From Myxococcota bacterium (lineage in GTDB: Bacteria; Myxococcota_A; SURF-8): 64,000 nt of DNA. The notes beneath the pieces are model-generated. The model was not told the DNA's origin, made no database searches, and saw nothing but the letters and a program-made list of their open reading frames with translations. Shown in pieces: positions 52,035 to 61,285 of the stretch; within the stretch, counting starts at the first letter, position 1; the number at the start of each line of letters is the position of its first letter. The stretch lies in NCBI GenBank assembly GCA_965140415.1, contig OZ223209.1, forward strand, positions 4,128,001 to 4,192,000, in the 5' to 3' direction. The position numbers and the translations under genes were made by a program.

Positions 52035-52712
52035 ATGTCTGAGAAAACGACTGAAGTTAAAGATAGCCACCTCCAACCCACACCAATCATCGACAGTGGA
52101 CATGAAAGAGTGCGTGCTTTTGCACTTGAACATGCCGGCAAATCCAACGATAAGGTTGAACAGGCCGTTGGGTTGTATTATGCGGTTCGCGATCTGATCC
52201 GCTACAATCCTTACACCTTTTCCCTAACCGTCGAAACGCTCAAGGCCTCCAGTAGTCTTACTACAGGCGAAGCATGGTGTGTGCCCAAGGCAGCCTTGCT
52301 TGCCGCCTGTTGCCGCGCAATGGGTATCCCGTCTCGTGTGGGATTCGCAGATGTCCGCAATCATCTGTCTACCAAACGTATGCGTGAAATGATGAAAACC
52401 GACGTGTTTCACTGGCACGGCTACACCCTGCTGTATCTTGAAGGCAAATGGGTGAAAGCGACTCCGGCATTCAACCGGGAACTGTGTGAACGATTCAACT
52501 TCAAGACGCTGGACTTCGATGGCACGCACGACTCTTTGTACCATCCTTTCGATCTTGATGGAAAGAAGCATATGGAGTATCTACACTTCAGGGGCGAGTA
52601 TGACGACGTGCCAATAGACGAAATGAAAGCGAGTATACAAGAGCTATACGGTAGCGAAACATTCGACGCAGACAACGCAGATTTTGACAAAGAAACGGAA
52701 AGGCTGGACTGA
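52035..52712 (+). CDS. transglutaminase-like family protein
   Basis: WCVPKA, GFADVRNH, WHGY, WVKATPAF. Confidence 0.9.
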   Translation: MSEKTTEVKDSHLQPTPIIDSGHERVRAFALEHAGKSNDKVEQAVGLYYAVRDLIRYNPYTFSLTVETLKASSSLTTGEAWCVPKAALLAACCRAMGIPSRVGFADVRNHLSTKRMREMMKTDVFHWHGYTLLYLEGKWVKATPAFNRELCERFNFKTLDFDGTHDSLYHPFDLDGKKHMEYLHFRGEYDDVPIDEMKASIQELYGSETFDADNADFDKETERLD

Positions 52713-53359
52713 TGACTCATCGGACGCTTTGGTACTTTACGGATTGTGTGTGCGCCTGGTGCTACAGCATGGCACCGAACATGGAACGCTTAATGGATGA
52801 ATTCGGAGATCGGATCAAGCTGCGCCTGGTTAGTTATGGTCTGTGTCCGGCAGAGCGGGCGATCGTTTTGAGACCGGAAAGTCGGGAGGGGTTTAAAAAG
52901 GAACTGAATCGCATCGAGACCCGCACCGGTGTGGCTTTCGGCCAAGCTTTTCGTAACTTGATCGAACAGGACGGTCTGGTTTTCGATAGTCATCCCGCCT
53001 CTAAAGCCTTGGCTCTATTGCGCCGTACTCAGTCCGATGACACACTCTCTTTTCTCCATGCTATCCAGCGTTCCGTATATGAGGACGGCCATCTTCCCGG
53101 TGATGAAGCCATGTTGAAAGAGCATTTGCTTCGCTTCGGTATCACTGAAGAAGTTTTCAAACGGGATTGGAATTCTGAAGAATTAGAAGACGACACCTAT
53201 GATGATTATGACCTGACCATGGAACGAGATATCAACATTGTTCCCAGCCTTTTAGTTCCCGATGAACCGAACGCACCGCGTTTCTGTTCGGGATTCATTC
53301 GCTATGATCTGCTCAAACAGCGGGTATCGGATTGGCTGGACCGACAAGCAATCGTGTAG
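52712..53359 (+). CDS. DsbA family protein
   Basis: DCVCAWCY, DSHPAS, IVPSL. Confidence 0.85.
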   Translation: MTHRTLWYFTDCVCAWCYSMAPNMERLMDEFGDRIKLRLVSYGLCPAERAIVLRPESREGFKKELNRIETRTGVAFGQAFRNLIEQDGLVFDSHPASKALALLRRTQSDDTLSFLHAIQRSVYEDGHLPGDEAMLKEHLLRFGITEEVFKRDWNSEELEDDTYDDYDLTMERDINIVPSLLVPDEPNAPRFCSGFIRYDLLKQRVSDWLDRQAIV

Positions 53360-53364
53360 CTTTA

Positions 53365-53670
53365 TCATTCCATCCAGAGGAAACGTTTCAGGTTTATCCG
53401 ATCGTTCTCATCGAAATGAACGCCCTCGCTCTGTAAAAGAGCTTTCTGTTCCTCATAACCTCTGGACCTGGGTAGGCTGATTGCACCCTTGGCATTGATG
53501 ACCCGTTGCCAGGGAAGATTATACTTGCGACTCATGGAATGGATGATTCGGGTCACCTGTCTGGCACCGTTGGGGTGTCCGGCCATGATTGCGATGGTTC
53601 CATATGTACAGACCTTCCCCTCTGGGATGCTTCTCATTATTTCGATCACTCTCCTGGTAAAGTCATTCAT
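53365..53670 (-). CDS. MGMT-family alkyltransferase-like protein
   Basis: IPEGKVCTYG, ARQV, PWQRVIN (Trp in place of the active Cys), LLQSEGV. Confidence 0.9.
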   Translation of the reverse strand: MNDFTRRVIEIMRSIPEGKVCTYGTIAIMAGHPNGARQVTRIIHSMSRKYNLPWQRVINAKGAISLPRSRGYEEQKALLQSEGVHFDENDRINLKRFLWME

Positions 53671-53893
53671 GATATTCTTGTATGGTCCGTACCTGAATCC
53701 CAGTTTCTTCAACTGAAAACGCTGGATACCGGGAGTTATTCTCAGCAGTTCCATAACTACTCCGAAAAGAACGTCAGTATCCGGTTGAAGTTCATACCAC
53801 ACCTGTCAATAAGCACCAACACGTAAAAAACAATCTGAGAAGTCCATTCCGATTATACTTGACTATTTGGCAAACTATCAAAACAATGTCTCC

Positions 53894-54205
53894 ATGACAT
53901 GTTGCACGACGAAAAAAACGAAGGAAGACTTCAAACGTCAGGCGAGAATCCACAAGGCACTGGCCAATGAGGCACGGCTGCTCATCGTAGACCGCTTGAA
54001 AAACTGCGAGTGTTCGGTGAGTGAGTTGGCATCAGCAGTGGAACTGGACATATCCACCGTGTCCAACCATCTTTCCGTACTTCTCTCCGCCGGGATTGTG
54101 GACAATCGCAAAGCAGGCACCACGGTCTATTACCGTCTGCTAACACCTTGTGTGCTTGACATGTTCGCATGCACCGAAAAGGTGTTGAAAAACCGCGACG
54201 GATAG
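53894..54205 (+). CDS. ArsR/SmtB family regulator
   Basis: KALANEARL, STVSNHLSVL, YYRL; CC near the N-terminus. Confidence 0.92.
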   Translation: MTCCTTKKTKEDFKRQARIHKALANEARLLIVDRLKNCECSVSELASAVELDISTVSNHLSVLLSAGIVDNRKAGTTVYYRLLTPCVLDMFACTEKVLKNRDG

Positions 54206-54398
54206 ATTTTCCCTATTGGAGAACACTCTATGACCGAACAATCAACTGTATTACATACAATCATTCAAGCCGGACACGGCAAAGCTAAAACAATGGGTCT
54301 TCACTTGGATGAATTGACTATACTATTGAAAACCTTACTGGATTACGAGTTATAAGCTTTTCTTCATTCTCTTTATGAGTAAGTTGTAGGGGTATCTA

Positions 54399-55607
54399 AT
54401 GTCCGAAAACCATTCATGGAAAGGTTGGGCGCTCTTCGGCGTCCTGTTTCTCGTCGCCACGCTGTCGGCGGCGCTCGTTACGAAACTATTGGTTCTGACC
54501 GCACTGCCGGTAGGCTTTCTGTTCGGGTTCTTTTTGCAAAAAGGCGACCTCTGCGGCTCAAGCGCCTTCAGCGAAGTGTTATTGATGAAGTCCTGGTCCA
54601 AGGTCTTCGGCATCTGGACGGTGATCGTCGTCTCAATGCTGGGCTTCGCTTTGCTGCATGGCTTCGATCTCATTACACTTACCATCAAACCGATGTGGTG
54701 GCTGAATTACCTGATCGGCGGCGCAGTCTTCGGTGTTGGTATGGTGCTGGCTGGAGGCTGCGTGTCGGGCTGCCTGTATAAAGCTGGGACAGGCAATCTC
54801 AACTCCATCGTGGCGTTGATCGGTATTCCGTTGGGCGTCTCGCTTGTGGAGTACGGACCTTTGAAGGGACTCTACAACGGCATGAAATCCGTGACGACGA
54901 CCGCACCGGATGGTGGCCCGCTGAGTCTTTTCGCGCTGCTCGGTGTTCCTTACTGGACGCTGGCGATCTTTTTCGCTGTGGCAACGATTATTGCTCTGGT
55001 TTTCTGGAAGAGAAAGTCTAGCAAAACCAACCCCCAACCCAAAACAGTAAAAGGATTCAAAGACTGGTTGATGCACCCATGGAAACCCTGGCAGGCGGGG
55101 GTGGCCATCGGATTGCTTGCCATGGCGGCCTATATGTCCTCCGCTGCCAGCGGACGAAACTATCCCCTCGGCGTCACCCACGGCGTGCTGTTCACTCAGG
55201 TGCTGATTACCGACTCCAGCATCCAGCACGTTTACGAGAAACCCGATCCCAAACCGGTGGTTTCAGATGCAAAACCGTTAGCCCCAAAACCAGAGAAAAA
55301 GGTTGTCTGGTGGCTGGTGTTGCTGGTCGGCGCTCTTGTGCTCGGCTCACACACCTCGGCGAGACTGTCAGGGCAAGCAAAGCTTCTTCCTAAACCACCT
55401 GATCAGGTACTGATCGCCCTGCTTGGCGGCTTCCTTGTCGGCACAGGTGCCGCGCTGGCCAAAGGATGCGTGGTCGGCAATATCATGAGCGGCTGGGCAC
55501 TGATGAGCCTTGGCACGGTATTTTTCGGTGTGGTGGCGATTCTGGCCAACTGGGCGACGACATATGTCTATCTGATGGGCGGGAACCCATTCTCCGGTAG
55601 GAAATGA
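54399..55607 (+). CDS. YeeE/YedE sulfur-compound transporter
   Basis: GDLC, FGVGMVLAGGCVSG, LAKGCVVG. Confidence 0.88.
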   Translation: MSENHSWKGWALFGVLFLVATLSAALVTKLLVLTALPVGFLFGFFLQKGDLCGSSAFSEVLLMKSWSKVFGIWTVIVVSMLGFALLHGFDLITLTIKPMWWLNYLIGGAVFGVGMVLAGGCVSGCLYKAGTGNLNSIVALIGIPLGVSLVEYGPLKGLYNGMKSVTTTAPDGGPLSLFALLGVPYWTLAIFFAVATIIALVFWKRKSSKTNPQPKTVKGFKDWLMHPWKPWQAGVAIGLLAMAAYMSSAASGRNYPLGVTHGVLFTQVLITDSSIQHVYEKPDPKPVVSDAKPLAPKPEKKVVWWLVLLVGALVLGSHTSARLSGQAKLLPKPPDQVLIALLGGFLVGTGAALAKGCVVGNIMSGWALMSLGTVFFGVVAILANWATTYVYLMGGNPFSGRK

Positions 55608-55699
55608 TTGCACCGGAGGCGATCAGAAGATAGCGAATCGAAAGGATGAAAAAAGAGAAGCGGGCATCATGTCCCACTTCTCTGTCAGAGACCAAGATT

Positions 55700-57103
55700 C
55701 TAGGGTTCCTCTTCTTCCTGTTCACCGCAGAGGCAGGGGTCATCGGACTCGTTTACATCGCAACCGCCGCTTGTGTAAGAAGGATCAACAGCGGTGCAGA
55801 TGTCATCGCAGGATTGCATGGTCCAGTATCCGTAGTAGTAATCCTCACCTTCGCAGACAGACAGCATCCCGTTTTCCTCACAGTACATCTCGCCGGGGAA
55901 GCACTCCGGCATGACGCCGTCCATTGCACCATATTCACAGTTGCACAGTTCCGTTCCGCCTTCGTAACAACCCAGTGAATAGTAGTCGTAGCCATAGTTT
56001 TCATAACACCAATCATTGCAACTCATCGACTGGTAATAGCCCGGCTCGCCCTGGTGATCGGCTGGATCTGAATCGTCGTAGGGAGTGCAGCGGTTCAGGT
56101 TGTAATCATCCGCACACTGATCCTCGCCCACGAAACACTCAATGGGCTCGCCTTCGATTATGCCATATTCACACTGGCAGGGATTCTGCGTATCTTCCGC
56201 ATCGCAACCATAGGAGACATAATCCGCACCAAATTCCTCTACGCAGTAATCTTCGCAAAGGTACATTGTGAACCATTCACTGGGATTCTCACAGACGAAC
56301 AACTTCGATCCGTCCTCGCAATACATTTCCCCCGAAGTACAATAGGCAAGATCTCCGTCGGGAATGTCTTCGCCATCTCCATCCACATCTCCATCGATAT
56401 CACCATCCGGCAACTGACAGTCGCACAGATTACCGCTCTGATCTTCATCGCAGATCGAACTTGGCTGGTACTCTTCCCCGAACTGGCTTTCGCAATATTC
56501 CTCACAGGTCTTGTACTGGAACATGCTGGTATCGTCGCACACCTGCACGGTCTCGTTATCCAGGCAATACACCTCCCCCGGTGTACATTCCACCATGACA
56601 CCTAGCAACATGTCGTACTCGCATTCGCAGCCACTGGGATCGTCCGACGAGCACTGGATGCTGAAGATTTCCTCGTCCGGCGGTCGATGCTCCGCGCAGT
56701 AATCGTTGCAGTTAACCGTAACGATTTCCCCATCGCGGCATAAAGTCGCCTCGAAGTTTTCGCTACAGGCCAAAAGCTGATCCGCGCCACAGGAACTGTC
56801 GCCATCGATTTCGTAATCCACATCCCCCACCGGCACTCCGGCCAGGGCGTTGTCGCTGTCCGTTTCCACCGCATCCTGATCCCCTTGCCCGATAATGATG
56901 GTGTCTGAGTCCGAGCACGATGGGCTTCCCAGCGCCAGTCCTGCCGCCAGTAGCAACGTTACCGCCGCACGTGCGACTTTTTGCGGGAAGAACCAGGAAA
57001 GCCACAGCGCCCGCGCAGTTAGACTCTGAGCGCTTTCACTGCCGTACCGGGCCTGCCGATACCGTTTGATGGGCTGCACCTTAAAGGGGGATTTCTTGTT
57101 CAT
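55700..57103 (-). CDS. Cys-rich repeat lipoprotein with N-terminal leader-like extension
   Basis: Basic/Tyr N-terminus, hydrophobic stretch ending GSPSC, five 8-Cys repeats; 29 nt downstream of the rSAM gene. Confidence 0.85.
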   Translation of the reverse strand: MNKKSPFKVQPIKRYRQARYGSESAQSLTARALWLSWFFPQKVARAAVTLLLAAGLALGSPSCSDSDTIIIGQGDQDAVETDSDNALAGVPVGDVDYEIDGDSSCGADQLLACSENFEATLCRDGEIVTVNCNDYCAEHRPPDEEIFSIQCSSDDPSGCECEYDMLLGVMVECTPGEVYCLDNETVQVCDDTSMFQYKTCEEYCESQFGEEYQPSSICDEDQSGNLCDCQLPDGDIDGDVDGDGEDIPDGDLAYCTSGEMYCEDGSKLFVCENPSEWFTMYLCEDYCVEEFGADYVSYGCDAEDTQNPCQCEYGIIEGEPIECFVGEDQCADDYNLNRCTPYDDSDPADHQGEPGYYQSMSCNDWCYENYGYDYYSLGCYEGGTELCNCEYGAMDGVMPECFPGEMYCEENGMLSVCEGEDYYYGYWTMQSCDDICTAVDPSYTSGGCDVNESDDPCLCGEQEEEEP

Positions 57104-57132
57104 AATGACACCTTTATTTTATTCGTCGGTTT

Positions 57133-58254
57133 TCAATCGTAACCGTATTCCAACTGGTCCTGCTGATAACGATATTGTTTTTTCAGAAAATGCCGGTCCT
57201 TTTCCGCCCATAGAATGTTGCCGATTTCATCCGAAATGGGAATCAGCATGCGTTCGTGTTCGCATAGAATCGGGGCTACCTGGGTCAGTTCACCGGTAAG
57301 CTGCCAGTTCATACAACCGCAGTAGTTGGCACAACGTCCCTGCATGGCACAACCCTCACACTGGGGCCGGGGTTGCTTGTTGCGTTGAATCAACATCTGC
57401 CAGCGCTCGTTCAAGCCGGTGTCGGCGTGCCCGATCTGATACTCCTGCGCGTCGGGTCGGTCGCTGACGAACTGCACGCAGGGGAAAATACGACCATCCG
57501 GTGCCATGGAAATCTTCCGCTTACCGAAATCACATATTTCACCCAACTGAATCGGTGAACGGGCATGGCTTTTCAGTTTCTCATCGAACAGGCTCATATA
57601 GAAATATTCGCCGCTGCAGGTAGTCTCGATGTACCACCTGGCCAGCTTCTTGTAACTTTCCCGCAACGCCTCGAATGATTCCAGATCCCAGTCCGGATCG
57701 CTGAAGGCGGGTTGATGCACCATATAGCGAATTCCGCGCGACCACATGTACAGAATCGACTCGTAGAGGCGGTCGGCGGATTTGGGAGTAATGACGCTGG
57801 TAAAAATGCTGCGCGGATTGTAGCGCAGGATCATATCCAGTTTGCTGTCGATCAAATCGAAACTGCCACGCCCATCGGGTAAAATGCGTTGGCCGTCGTG
57901 AGCTTGACGATCACCATCTAACGAGATTGCATACAGGATGTTGTTATCGCGGCAAAACGCCAGACGTTCTTCGTTAAACAGCGTTCCATTGGTGCTTAGC
58001 CTGAAATGCATGGATTTTCCGACTTCACGCCCGCGCTGTAAGGAATACTCTGTCAATCGTTGCAGTAAATCGAACTGTAACAACGGCTCGCCACCGAAAT
58101 AGGAAACACAGGCGGAATTCTGACCGAGTTTCACTGCCAGATCGATCCCTTTTCGAGCGGTCTGCTCACTCATGTCTTCCTGAACTTTGCCGGGTGCATA
58201 GCAATAGGTACAGCGCAAGTTGCAGTTTTTCGTGAGATGTAAAATAATCTTCAT
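57133..58254 (-). CDS. radical SAM/SPASM domain enzyme
   Basis: CNLRCTYC, FGGEPLL, TNG, ISLDG; SPASM CDFG..DGRIFPC..CEGC..C..C.C..C. Confidence 0.95.
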   Translation of the reverse strand: MKIILHLTKNCNLRCTYCYAPGKVQEDMSEQTARKGIDLAVKLGQNSACVSYFGGEPLLQFDLLQRLTEYSLQRGREVGKSMHFRLSTNGTLFNEERLAFCRDNNILYAISLDGDRQAHDGQRILPDGRGSFDLIDSKLDMILRYNPRSIFTSVITPKSADRLYESILYMWSRGIRYMVHQPAFSDPDWDLESFEALRESYKKLARWYIETTCSGEYFYMSLFDEKLKSHARSPIQLGEICDFGKRKISMAPDGRIFPCVQFVSDRPDAQEYQIGHADTGLNERWQMLIQRNKQPRPQCEGCAMQGRCANYCGCMNWQLTGELTQVAPILCEHERMLIPISDEIGNILWAEKDRHFLKKQYRYQQDQLEYGYD

Positions 58255-58572
58255 AAACTCGGCACCCTTTCGAATCTCAGTGGCGGACAACTTGAAAAGC
58301 AAGTTTCAGGCCAAATGATAGCAGCCGAACTTCAATAGCACAACTGACTTAACTATCTATTTTCACTAATTTATTATTACCCTTACCAATCAAACAGATC
58401 GATTCGCTTCCGTAAAGTGTCAAGCCAGCCTGTCATGTCCGCCATTGTTGACATCGTTAGCACTTTCTTCCCCTCCCCTTTTCCCCTGATTTCCATCACC
58501 ACACTTGACAGAAACCAGGGAAATTGTTTTGATATCGTTCAAGATCTCAAACCGTATCAAGGAAAATCGCAC

Positions 58573-59756: not shown

Positions 59757-60899
59757 TTATTTTCCGAATAGAGCCTTGCCGCCGGCTCTGCGTTCACCGG
59801 CTTTAATCTGTCGGATCACCTCCAGGATTTCCGCTTTGATCGACAACATTTCATGCGTCATGGGAGGATTGGCTTTCATCGTTTTGTAAAGTTTGACGAA
59901 AGTGGCTAGCGCATCTTCGGTGAGATCGGGAGAAAGGTATTGTGACCATCCCAGCTTGTACAGAATTCGATAATAGGTTTTACCGGGTTTGTAATGCTCC
60001 AGCGCCTGTTCATAGAGCGTAGCCGCCTTCGAATAGTGATCAAAGGCAGTCGGCGTATCGAATTCATACTCCGCCATACGGAAATAGGCATCGCCTAGAT
60101 ATTTGCTACTCGGGTATTTCTTAACGAAAGACCGCCACAGGGCAATCGCCTGTTTCTGCATGCCGACTTCCATCTTCACCGCCGCCAGCAGACGATGAAC
60201 GCTGTCCATCGCTTTGAAGCCGGGAAAGCGCTTTCCGATTTCTTCGCAGGCTGCGATGATACGCTCATAATTGCTGTTGTATTCACGCGAAATCATGATG
60301 GAAGGCTGCCCATTCAGAATCGACCTCGGTTTGACAGGAGCGACTTCCACATCCTTGTCGCCATCGGCAACGGGTTGCGGTTCTGCGACAGGCTTGGTTT
60401 CCTGCTGCAACGCTTGCGGTGCCTGGCTTCGCACGGCGTAAAGCTCCTGGGCGAAAAAGAGCAAAATGTAAGGATCGGCATCCAGCTTCAATCGCTCAGT
60501 CGCTAAAAATGCAAAAGCCTTACGAAGTTCGTCCAGTTCCTTGTTCATTTCGCTGACTTTGACATTCAACTCGGCGTGAATACCTTCAATTTTCTCTTTG
60601 CTGCTGACCGCATCCAAACTACTATCGGAGTAAATTGCGTTCAGTTGTTTATCGCGATCGGCTTCCAACTGCGCCAACTGCTTCGGATACTGCAACAACT
60701 TCAAATGGATCTGGTACAGTCCCTGATCTGTCTCGTTGAATACCTCTGGAAATTCAACAAGTTGGGGACGAAACTCCAAACTAAACTGTAGTCCGGGCGA
60801 GGAAATCGCCTGAGCGCTTAAAGGAATCAACAACATCAAGATTGCGAGCAAACAACCCGTAATCCGGCTTTTTGTTTGAATCATGCGAGCTTGCGGCAT
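59757..60899 (-). CDS. secreted tetratricopeptide-repeat protein
   Basis: RBS aggag, signal peptide, FVKKYPSSKYLGDAYFRMAEY, LYKLGW. Confidence 0.8.
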   Translation of the reverse strand: MPQARMIQTKSRITGCLLAILMLLIPLSAQAISSPGLQFSLEFRPQLVEFPEVFNETDQGLYQIHLKLLQYPKQLAQLEADRDKQLNAIYSDSSLDAVSSKEKIEGIHAELNVKVSEMNKELDELRKAFAFLATERLKLDADPYILLFFAQELYAVRSQAPQALQQETKPVAEPQPVADGDKDVEVAPVKPRSILNGQPSIMISREYNSNYERIIAACEEIGKRFPGFKAMDSVHRLLAAVKMEVGMQKQAIALWRSFVKKYPSSKYLGDAYFRMAEYEFDTPTAFDHYSKAATLYEQALEHYKPGKTYYRILYKLGWSQYLSPDLTEDALATFVKLYKTMKANPPMTHEMLSIKAEILEVIRQIKAGERRAGGKALFGK

Positions 60900-61285
60900 A
60901 GTGATTTTTCTCCTTGCCAGTAGCGTTGCGATTTTATCTATGTACATTCCAAATGATCGAGTATTGTTGCTGACTCGTGAAGTCATTAAACGAAAGCCTT
61001 TTTCTCCGACATCAAGCAGGAAAAAAGCCCCACGCCCCCAGTAGAACGAGTTCGGTAGAGGGCTCAAATCATTTTGTTTGTCTGTTCGAACGTTATTCGA
61101 TTCGATTGGCTACACCCGACTTCAGGCAGGTTTGCCGCACGTTTCGTTTAAGTAGCGTACCACTCGCTTCTTTTCAGTGTCAAGCTTTTTACCCGAGACT
61201 CAAACAGTCATTTTCGTAGAAAATCCTTGACCTTACCGCGACAGAACAGCTACCCTTCCATGGGTGACGCAAAAGGAGGAATCGG

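Follow-up and report, generated by a model that had tools for sequence, protein, structure and literature searches.

A radical SAM/SPASM enzyme and its leader-bearing partner protein in a Myxococcota genome: a candidate leader-guided, pre-export protein maturation system

The DNA examined here, called the window throughout, is a stretch of 64,000 nucleotides (nt) from a Myxococcota bacterium (assembly GCA_965140415.1, contig OZ223209.1, positions 4,128,001 to 4,192,000). Its minus strand carries the gene of a radical S-adenosylmethionine (SAM)/SPASM enzyme and, directly downstream, the gene of a partner protein in which a leader precedes a lipoprotein-type export signal and five Cys-rich modules. 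The pairing of both genes, the conservation of the portable leader and its co-occurrence with the enzyme, and the absence from the enzyme of the recognition element (RRE) of systems for ribosomally made, post-translationally modified peptides are all evident by computation. The two gene products are very probably an enzyme and its substrate, guided by the leader, and on balance we favour the reading that the pair belongs to a system of several phyla, without a name as yet, in which an enzyme guided by a leader matures proteins before their export. The features of the locus are as follows.

57133..58254, minus strand: radical SAM/SPASM enzyme, 373 amino acids (aa), from the open reading frame (ORF), Pfam, NCBIfam, and the homologue alignment
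57104..57132, minus strand: spacer between the enzyme and partner genes, 29 nt, holding a ribosome-binding site
55700..57103, minus strand: partner protein, 467 aa, with leader, lipoprotein-type signal, acidic linker, and five 8-Cys modules
56969..57103, minus strand: cytoplasmic N-terminal extension (basic, Pro/Tyr-containing), residues 1-45
57032..57091, minus strand: putative docking motif of the leader, residues 5-24 (SPFKVQPIKRYRQARYGSES), from leader conservation and the complex model
56915..56968, minus strand: hydrophobic signal segment and lipobox-like LALGSPSC, residues 46-63, with the codon of Cys63 at 56915-56917
56792..56914, minus strand: acidic linker after Cys63, residues 64-104, including ALAGVPVGDVDYEIDGD, of low model confidence
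55721..56791, minus strand: five 8-Cys modules, residues 105-461, with a predicted local distance difference test score (pLDDT) of 80-95
56588..56620, minus strand: inter-module linker 1, EYDMLLGVMVE, residues 162-172, of low model confidence
56342..56377, minus strand: inter-module linker 2, DGEDIPDGDLAY, residues 243-254
56138..56170, minus strand: inter-module linker 3, EYGIIEGEPIE, residues 312-322
55904..55936, minus strand: inter-module linker 4, EYGAMDGVMPE, residues 390-400
55654..55683, minus strand: terminator-like hairpin from a consensus scan, with a stem of 11 bp and a T run behind it, 17 nt past the partner stop

The enzyme is encoded by an ORF at 57133..58302 of the minus strand, the ATG at 58254 being its likely start and giving a product of 373 aa. 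Its stop codon (57133-57135) and the ATG of the partner (57101-57103) are separated by 29 nt, within which an AAGGTG ribosome-binding site (57109-57114) is placed with a 5-nt spacer to that ATG. The flanking genes, coding for an FAA hydrolase and a YeeE-type sulphur transporter (with ArsR also among the neighbours), are on the opposite strand and this, together with the hairpin after the second gene, indicates that enzyme and partner form a two-gene unit, in line with the first-pass annotation made from the sequence of this DNA, which had also given the 29-nt gap. For the hairpin the evidence is just a consensus scan, in which sites of this kind were no more numerous over the region than in shuffles.

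Regarding the start of the partner, no downstream in-frame ATG, GTG, or TTG codon yields a normal signal peptide, the valine before the hydrophobic segment being encoded by GTC and the sole TTG lying inside the hydrophobic run. The 45-aa extension must thus be translated, as confirmed by its conservation as protein in other genomes, and a shorter partner starting downstream was rejected on these same grounds. With its Cys63, as compared with Cys at residues 18-41 in the five other lipobox candidates of the window (crude scan), the partner has indeed a longer extension than the other candidate lipoproteins, as claimed at first pass for an estimated ~40 aa. The lipobox of the window protein (LALGSPSC) is non-canonical at positions -3 and -2, its orthologues displaying VSAC, LIAC, and VAAC, and therefore cleavage at Cys63, a residue invariant in 11/11 rows of the alignment of close leaders (A1), rests on the orthologues.

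The leader exhibits a core of the form P-[VIL]-x-x-Y-x-x-[AP]-x-Y-[PGA], with Tyr20 invariant in 23/23 leaders and Tyr15 conserved in at least 90% of them. It is this N-terminal extension, not the Cys modules, that is the conserved element of the system. A second pair in the same genome (G000:C1:3710154-3711953; locus L004 1501..3300) comprises a radical SAM enzyme 54% identical to that of the window and, after a 66-nt gap, a 200-aa partner whose first ~100 residues are 35% identical to those of the window partner, and which displays acidic repeats such as MIIGDADYVPDED and no Cys after the lipobox. This small Cys-free protein would make an ideal test substrate.

Homologues of the enzyme at E ≤ 1e-50 are present in 33 of 401 genomes of the phylum. 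The six close orthologues (L011-L016, 58-69% identity, same family/order) are all followed by a leader-bearing Cys-module partner (6/6), a more distant enzyme (L017, 37% identity) by a pair of small acidic lipoproteins (83 and 230 aa) that lack Cys and both have the leader, and another one (L018, 39% identity) by a leader-bearing protein with a non-Cys globular domain. Upon searching 1.84 billion representative proteins with the leader profile, no more than 35 clusters were retrieved at E ≤ 1e-3, 15 of them at E ≤ 1e-10. The mature parts sort into four or more unrelated kinds, namely Cys modules, acidic repeats free of Cys, a globular domain with ...VRxYIxWAKxQG at its end, and one other domain. 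Some leader-bearing proteins, such as P0149 and P0151, contain no Cys at all, the second partner of L047 has one or none in its mature part, and nine partners of other classes gave no NCBIfam match at E ≤ 0.01 and one sub-threshold Pfam match.

The reverse search points in the same direction. In the 5.98-Mb genome of the window, just two matches of the leader profile were full-length (E 4.9e-27 and 7.5e-22), one directly downstream of each of the two paralogous radical SAM genes (2/2), the next match (E 5.9e-4) covering the signal-peptide part only. Across the 401 genomes of the phylum, 18 full-length leader matches were found in 11 genomes, and all 11 of them contain the radical SAM gene; 14 of the 18 adjoin it or stand in tandem behind another partner, with four being elsewhere. 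These counts are given without statistics because the relatives are not independent. Four leader-bearing Cys-module genes, L145 (G024:C2), L146 (G018:C1), L147 (G048:C8), and L150 (G048:C43), have no radical SAM gene within 1.5 kb, each of their genomes having one enzyme/partner locus elsewhere, and are possibly extra substrates served in trans. At L016 (G048:C33:17300-18405) the query matches the radical SAM gene as two pieces that overlap and lie in different frames, one for its residues 1-244 and the other for 236-369, which reflects either a frameshift or an assembly error, and that genome contains three leader-bearing Cys-module genes despite the split.

Beyond the phylum, a scan of one genome per species gave 80 loci (L040-L119). 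In 10 of the 11 with the best enzyme matches (L040-L050, 35-43% identity) a leader-bearing gene lies beside the radical SAM gene, the leader being detected by profile at E ≤ 1e-10 in eight loci (L040, L042-L047, L050), as a weak profile match in L041 (E 0.023), and by eye in L048; L049 shows the partner domain downstream of the enzyme and no leader in the called ORF. The ten leader-bearing loci come from metagenome-assembled genomes (MAGs) labelled Deltaproteobacteria, Krumholzibacteriia, Saprospiraceae, Thermoguttaceae, Akkermansia muciniphila, and Planctomycetaceae, with Kiritimatiellae also among the MAG labels of the scanned loci. No leader-profile match at E < 0.01 appeared in the 69 loci of lower enzyme identity (L051-L119), the nearest being L082 (0.014), and shorter '...Y-P...' variants followed by a signal are seen by eye in L051, as well as in L024 and L025 of the phylum set. 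The neighbourhood check put forward at first pass, whether homologues sit beside proteins sharing the leader, thus finds leader-bearing partners beside homologous enzymes across phyla. The proposal that the basic Pro/Tyr segment is a leader is likewise supported, as the segment is common to all partners of the enzyme clade, co-occurs with the enzyme, and docks on it in the complex model described below. By contrast, the system does not hinge on the 40-Cys repeat that headed the first-pass annotation, given that the paralogous and many other partners have one Cys or none in the mature part.

Among the distant partners, those at L048:3219-3998, L025:2624-3286 (minus strand), and L024:924-1481 display a Tyr-Pro motif with, very close behind it, a twin-arginine-like signal (TRREVLAG, RERRGLLKLMG, and RRDRRRVLRWLG) and a lipobox, which hints at twin-arginine translocation (Tat) export of an already folded or modified protein. 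A gut Verrucomicrobiota MAG labelled Akkermansia muciniphila encodes an enzyme of 37% identity and a leader-bearing, 395-aa partner of the globular class (L045:5115-6302). The commonest partner domain outside the lineage of the window (L042:2231-2758 and relatives, alignment A5) is of the alpha/beta type; its '...DG(F/Y)D...' motif contains an invariant Asp, and '...WLKxQGVI' stands at its C-terminus. Foldseek gave 0 matches at E ≤ 0.001 for the model of the commonest non-Cys partner domain (pLDDT 67.7), which shows a weak, non-significant likeness to PD-(D/E)xK nucleases (lambda exonuclease, E 0.02, Cas4 SSO0001, and RecU).

The enzyme scores above the cut-off of PF04055 Radical_SAM (56.4 vs 29.5 bits) and weakly, below the cut-off, with PF13186 SPASM (15.3 vs 21.5 bits). 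Its CX3CX2C motif occupies residues 11-18, with C11, C15, and C18 invariant in an alignment of 21 homologues, to which all conservation values given for enzyme residues refer. Starting at residue 11, this motif leaves no room for an N-terminal RRE, and the only PqqD-like (RRE) gene of the genome lies ~3.5 Mb from the pair. The seven-Cys SPASM pattern is present (C241-x12-G254-x4-C259, C299-x2-C302-x5-C308-x3-C312, and C331), all of it invariant, and an extra invariant C314 raises the SPASM-region Cys to eight (241, 259, 299, 302, 308, 312, 314, and 331). Both the full SPASM cysteines and the lack of an N-terminal RRE noted at first pass are therefore confirmed. In the NCBIfam scan the enzyme reached the cut-off of no curated family, its best curated matches being to the PapB, nif11-type, CXXX-repeat, CcpM, SCIFF, and QhpD maturases, all below cut-off. 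Scores for individual models are listed in bits.

PapB family (NF047865), best curated model: 212.9, cut-off 340, over nearly the whole model length
nif11-type: 155, cut-off 518.7
CXXX-repeat: 152.3, cut-off 350
SCIFF (TIGR03974): 139.4, cut-off 425
QhpD (TIGR03906): 138.2, cut-off 453
anSME (TIGR03942): 96.2, cut-off 349.45
CrpC family (TIGR04463): 60.9, cut-off 525

In a PDB search the best solved relative was CteB (213.6 bits, E 4e-62), with 120.7 bits for anSME. The CteB alignment spans enzyme residues 3-337 and begins at CteB residue 99, past the CteB RRE; since it ends at enzyme residue 337, the C-terminal stretch 338-373 is extra, ~36 residues following the aligned part in the enzyme versus 12 in CteB. 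C314 aligns with an Ala of CteB. Of at least 265 homologues of the enzyme, the closest (58-69% identity) bear generic names ('radical SAM protein') and come from MAGs of Myxococcota, Myxococcales, Polyangia, and 'Deltaproteobacteria'. Identity as a sulfatase maturase was rejected, considering the TIGR03942 score and that no sulfatase is found at 52-62 kb of the window among the nine neighbouring genes scanned. The first-pass annotation had held that clustering with sulfatase maturases, or lack of a conserved partner, would speak against its proposal; TIGR03942 stays far below its cut-off, a conserved partner is present, and its statement that no sulfatase adjoins the pair stands.

Docking of the leader was evaluated by modelling the enzyme (alignment A2) with leader residues 1-45 (alignment A3), SAM, and three 4Fe-4S clusters. 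Three runs gave values of 0.87, 0.87, and 0.00 for the interaction prediction score from aligned errors (ipSAE), the best of three controls giving 0.00; the ipSAE mark is reached by 58/80 solved complexes and 2/110 mismatched pairs, counts that hold only roughly here given the own alignments and ligands. Agreement of contacts between the runs is at least 0%, and the partner pLDDT is at least 29. In the modelled interface, leader residues 5-15 and 17-24, which correspond to the conserved motif, face enzyme residues 189-194, 230-234, 298-304, 326-350, and 361-363, Tyr20 contacting residues 342, 345, 346, 348, and 349. Within this surface D342 and L348 are invariant, and W349, R335, P339, and Y361 are at least 90% conserved, while no confident leader contact with the radical SAM core (residues 1-188) is observed in the complex model. 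Leader position 21 (Gly/Ala/His vs Pro) tracks enzyme residue 345 (Gly vs Ala) in 7/7 cases of the first class, the Pro class being mixed, and this covariation was left unused as evidence because it follows phylogeny. The models support, although they do not prove, that the motif acts as a recognition leader docking on the SPASM/C-terminal region, partly in the stretch that CteB lacks.

The mature part of the partner is markedly acidic, with 54 Asp and 50 Glu (104 acidic residues) against 2 Lys and 3 Arg. Its 41 Cys comprise Cys63 and 40 others arranged in five units of spacing C8C9C10C4C15C8C2C. The five 8-Cys modules described at first pass are thus recovered, and its four G-x4-C linkers (MLLGVMVEC, IPDGDLAYC, IIEGEPIEC, and AMDGVMPEC) and three CxCEY(D/G) linker starts are found as described. 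Over 73 modules of 23 proteins the consensus reads CxYxxxDGxxxxCxPGxxxCxDxxxLxxC...CxxYCxxxxGxxYxSxGCD...CxCEY, with the linker Gly present in 77% of the modules. The commonest residue after the linker Tyr is Asp (45% of the modules), not Gly, which speaks against the splicing at Tyr-Gly also contemplated at first pass. Splicing of the spliceotide kind (PlpX-type X-Tyr-Gly cores) was consequently rejected as unlikely; no splicease model was among the best 25 of the 75 NCBIfam matches of the enzyme, which is a weak test.

The AlphaFold2 model of the partner (16 aligned relatives) has a mean pLDDT of 74.3, with modules at 80-95 and values below 50 for the leader, residues 59-100, and the four inter-module linkers. 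When this model was compared with the PDB, none of the at least 500 Foldseek matches listed reached E ≤ 0.001, the best being Cys-rich eukaryotic repeats (E 0.025), and the best ESM Atlas match of the modules (0.79) is below the level of a lead. No Pfam or NCBIfam model covers the partner (no NCBIfam match at E ≤ 0.1; PF12454 sub-threshold, 16.1 vs 23.2 bits), nor does it match any curated lipoprotein model associated with radical SAM enzymes, these being the Bacteroidota models alluded to at first pass.

A working scheme can be proposed in which the partner would be made with a ~45-aa cytoplasmic leader ahead of an otherwise ordinary lipoprotein-type export signal. The leader motif (residues 5-24) would dock on the SPASM/C-terminal part of the enzyme as in the complex model, replacing an RRE and holding the precursor in the cytoplasm, where the enzyme would radically modify the part to be exported, presumably before export. 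Upon export, leader and signal peptide would be cut off together at Cys63 to give a very acidic five-module lipoprotein, probably disulfide-rich.

If the pair is indeed leader-guided, our best guess for its chemistry, to which we assign even chances, is a change that needs no Cys and is located in the short acidic linker motifs around Gly that Cys-rich and Cys-free partners have in common. The linkers, already proposed as the target at first pass, are chosen as the best guess because the shared Gly motif falls in linkers that the model leaves disordered. By eye, a Gly-centred motif is shared in the lineage of the window (CEYDITDGDIAGC in P0135 vs HYDITDGIPPDGDYY in P0126), and G-x(1-4)-P-Tyr/Phe-like strings, a lead only, are seen in several partner classes. 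The Cys-free partners of the paralogous pair and of other phyla argue for chemistry without substrate Cys, and the extra C314 would argue for the same if it closes off the iron site which seven-Cys enzymes are believed to keep free for a substrate Cys (PMC13692751).

Several observations weigh against the overall reading of the pair: (i) one of the three complex runs ended at ipSAE 0.00, and the leader's own fold is uncertain, (ii) conservation of the modelled interface (0.64) is barely higher than that of the whole enzyme (0.60), (iii) the Gly-centred motif was seen by eye and could be explained by common descent or by acidic low-complexity composition, and no target motif has been shown to be common to all partner classes, (iv) the lipobox of the window partner itself, S-P-S-C, is non-canonical, and (v) the nearest characterised relatives of the enzyme, with the thioether-forming CteB, PapB, and QhpD among them, all use a substrate Cys, which fits the Cys-rich partner better than Cys-independent chemistry does.

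This last point leads to the alternative that survives best, although we consider it doubtful, namely a thioether (ranthionine-type) maturase that would join Cys sulphur to the beta or gamma carbon of a nearby Asp or Glu within the 8-Cys modules, in the manner of QhpD with QhpC, PapB with PapA, and CrpC with CrpA, and with the leader only guiding. CteB as best solved relative, ahead of anSME, and the set of best curated models listed above favour it, as does a partner combining 40 module Cys with 104 Asp and Glu, some of them at fixed module places (C1+4 Asp 42%, C2+2 Asp 64%, C5+2 Glu 47%, C6+1 Asp 56%, C8+1 Glu 51%). [quoted passage not shown] Many pairs of the PapB type, Cys and then Asp or Glu, do occur in the window partner, but mature-part Cys is absent from partners of both close and distant homologues: the partner of the 54%-identical paralogue has no Cys after the lipobox, and those of the enzymes at 35-39% identity have one or none (P0149, P0151, and the second partner of L047). 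In thioether enzymes with seven Cys, an open iron site is believed to serve for the substrate Cys (PMC13692751), whereas the enzyme has eight invariant SPASM-region Cys, of which C314, Ala in CteB, may fill that site. In addition, eight Cys per module and a confident compact model equally fit plain disulfide knots, and the cut-off of no curated thioether family is reached.

It is improbable that the leader itself is the substrate, for instance through modification of Tyr20, the product being then either the leader-signal peptide, which is discarded, or a protein that stays permanently anchored by its N-terminus. The leader is certainly the sole element common to all partners, with its strongly conserved Tyr20 and Tyr15, and in some of them, such as that of L048, almost nothing lies between motif and twin-arginine-like signal. 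Nonetheless, the model places residues 5-24 on the SPASM/C-terminal surface, with no confident contact to the core, and a leader lost with the signal peptide would be an odd site for a lasting modification. Least probable of all is that enzyme and partner are unrelated in function, the latter being an ordinary disulfide-rich lipoprotein and the former acting elsewhere or using the partner's cytoplasmic tail as a membrane anchor: in favour of this, a scan of the neighbour genes showed no protease, exporter, or further tailoring gene beside the pair, but enzyme and leader stay together from phylum to phylum even though the mature domain changes, leaders in the 401-genome set are confined to genomes that have the enzyme, and the lipobox or signal-peptidase-I-like site of most partners would remove the supposed anchor.

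Returning to the leader-guided, pre-export maturase, a broader version can be advanced only tentatively. The enzyme family would have swapped the RRE for a C-terminal surface gripping a 'Tyr-Pro box' ahead of Sec-, lipoprotein-, or Tat-type signals in Myxococcota-like bacteria, Bacteroidota, Verrucomicrobiota, Planctomycetota, and others, and would serve as a general pre-export checkpoint for Cys-independent radical modification of unrelated surface or periplasmic proteins.

It is chiefly through small peptide natural products that radical SAM maturases are known, and to our knowledge few of them act on whole proteins, the substrates being sulfatases, QhpC, and CrpA (2026). Like CteB (the SCIFF/thermocellin thioether maturase, PDB 5WGG/5WHY, TIGR03974), the enzyme combines a radical SAM core with a SPASM domain. 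CteB, however, has an N-terminal RRE (residues 1-98), seven SPASM Cys, and a small cytoplasmic peptide as substrate, whereas the enzyme has no RRE, eight such Cys, and an exported protein as partner. It resembles anSME (TIGR03942, PDB 4K36-4K39) in lacking an RRE, and anSME too acts on whole proteins exported later; both auxiliary clusters of anSME are fully Cys-ligated, and it is not known to use an N-terminal leader. Tat chaperones of the TorD/DmsD type are cytoplasmic proteins that grip a precursor at its export signal, or next to it, for as long as maturation lasts. The likeness to them would be one of analogy, not homology, since here the gripping protein would itself carry out the modification and the grip would be on a dedicated motif upstream of the signal.

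QhpD (TIGR03906), which serves quinohemoprotein amine dehydrogenase, is likewise a radical SAM/SPASM enzyme acting on a protein, and its cross-linking occurs in the cytoplasm before QhpC goes to the periplasm. QhpC is a small dedicated enzyme subunit, unlike the window partner, and the qhp operon was not found among the neighbour genes scanned around the pair. The cross-links made by QhpD in QhpC are thioethers (PMC10114670). PapB, acting on PapA (freyrasin ranthipeptide, NF047865), is leader-dependent, as the enzyme would be, and tolerates very different cores, and is described as acting via an RRE (PMC9413430), which the enzyme does not have; PapB moreover needs a substrate Cys, while many partners of the enzyme clade have none. 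CrpC, acting on CrpA (Methanococcus voltae, TIGR04463), is also a radical SAM/SPASM enzyme working on a large Cys-rich repeat protein, and two neighbouring proteins share a leader-like N-terminus; it is archaeal, has an RRE and seven SPASM Cys, and the accessible text of its report mentions no export signal behind the leader (PMC13692751).

Judged by sequence, the enzyme appears to work like the leader-guided radical SAM/SPASM maturases and the protein-level cases (QhpD, CrpC, and anSME), and is a member of none of their curated families. Four features distinguish it: the lack of an RRE, the eight SPASM-region Cys, the C-terminal docking region predicted by the model, and a leader that is placed ahead of an export signal and is common to unrelated exported proteins. 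In the full-text literature no description was found of a radical SAM enzyme paired with a leader before a signal peptide, although the supplementary lists of PMC13692751, on radical SAM-associated Cys-rich bacterial proteins, might include relatives.

The system is widespread and unannotated, and has no curated family. If the proposed reading is right, a short portable tag before the export signal would recruit a radical SAM enzyme without RRE to many exported proteins unrelated to one another, would do so in several phyla (a gut Akkermansia MAG included), and would widen the range of radical post-translational chemistry on bacterial surface proteins. The leader motif would then also be a new and simple handle for genome mining, and tag and enzyme a compact pair for protein engineering. 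The Cys-free partners of 83 and 200 aa make the chemistry directly testable by mass spectrometry.

Regarding the remaining surroundings, genes for a transglutaminase-like protein, a DsbA-like thioredoxin-fold protein, an MGMT-type DNA-binding domain, ArsR, and a YeeE/YedE sulphur transporter adjoin the unit at 52035-55607 of the window, with no evident tie to the pair. At 59757-61067 (minus strand) the window encodes a TPR-containing protein of 436 aa with a hydrophobic segment at its N-terminus.

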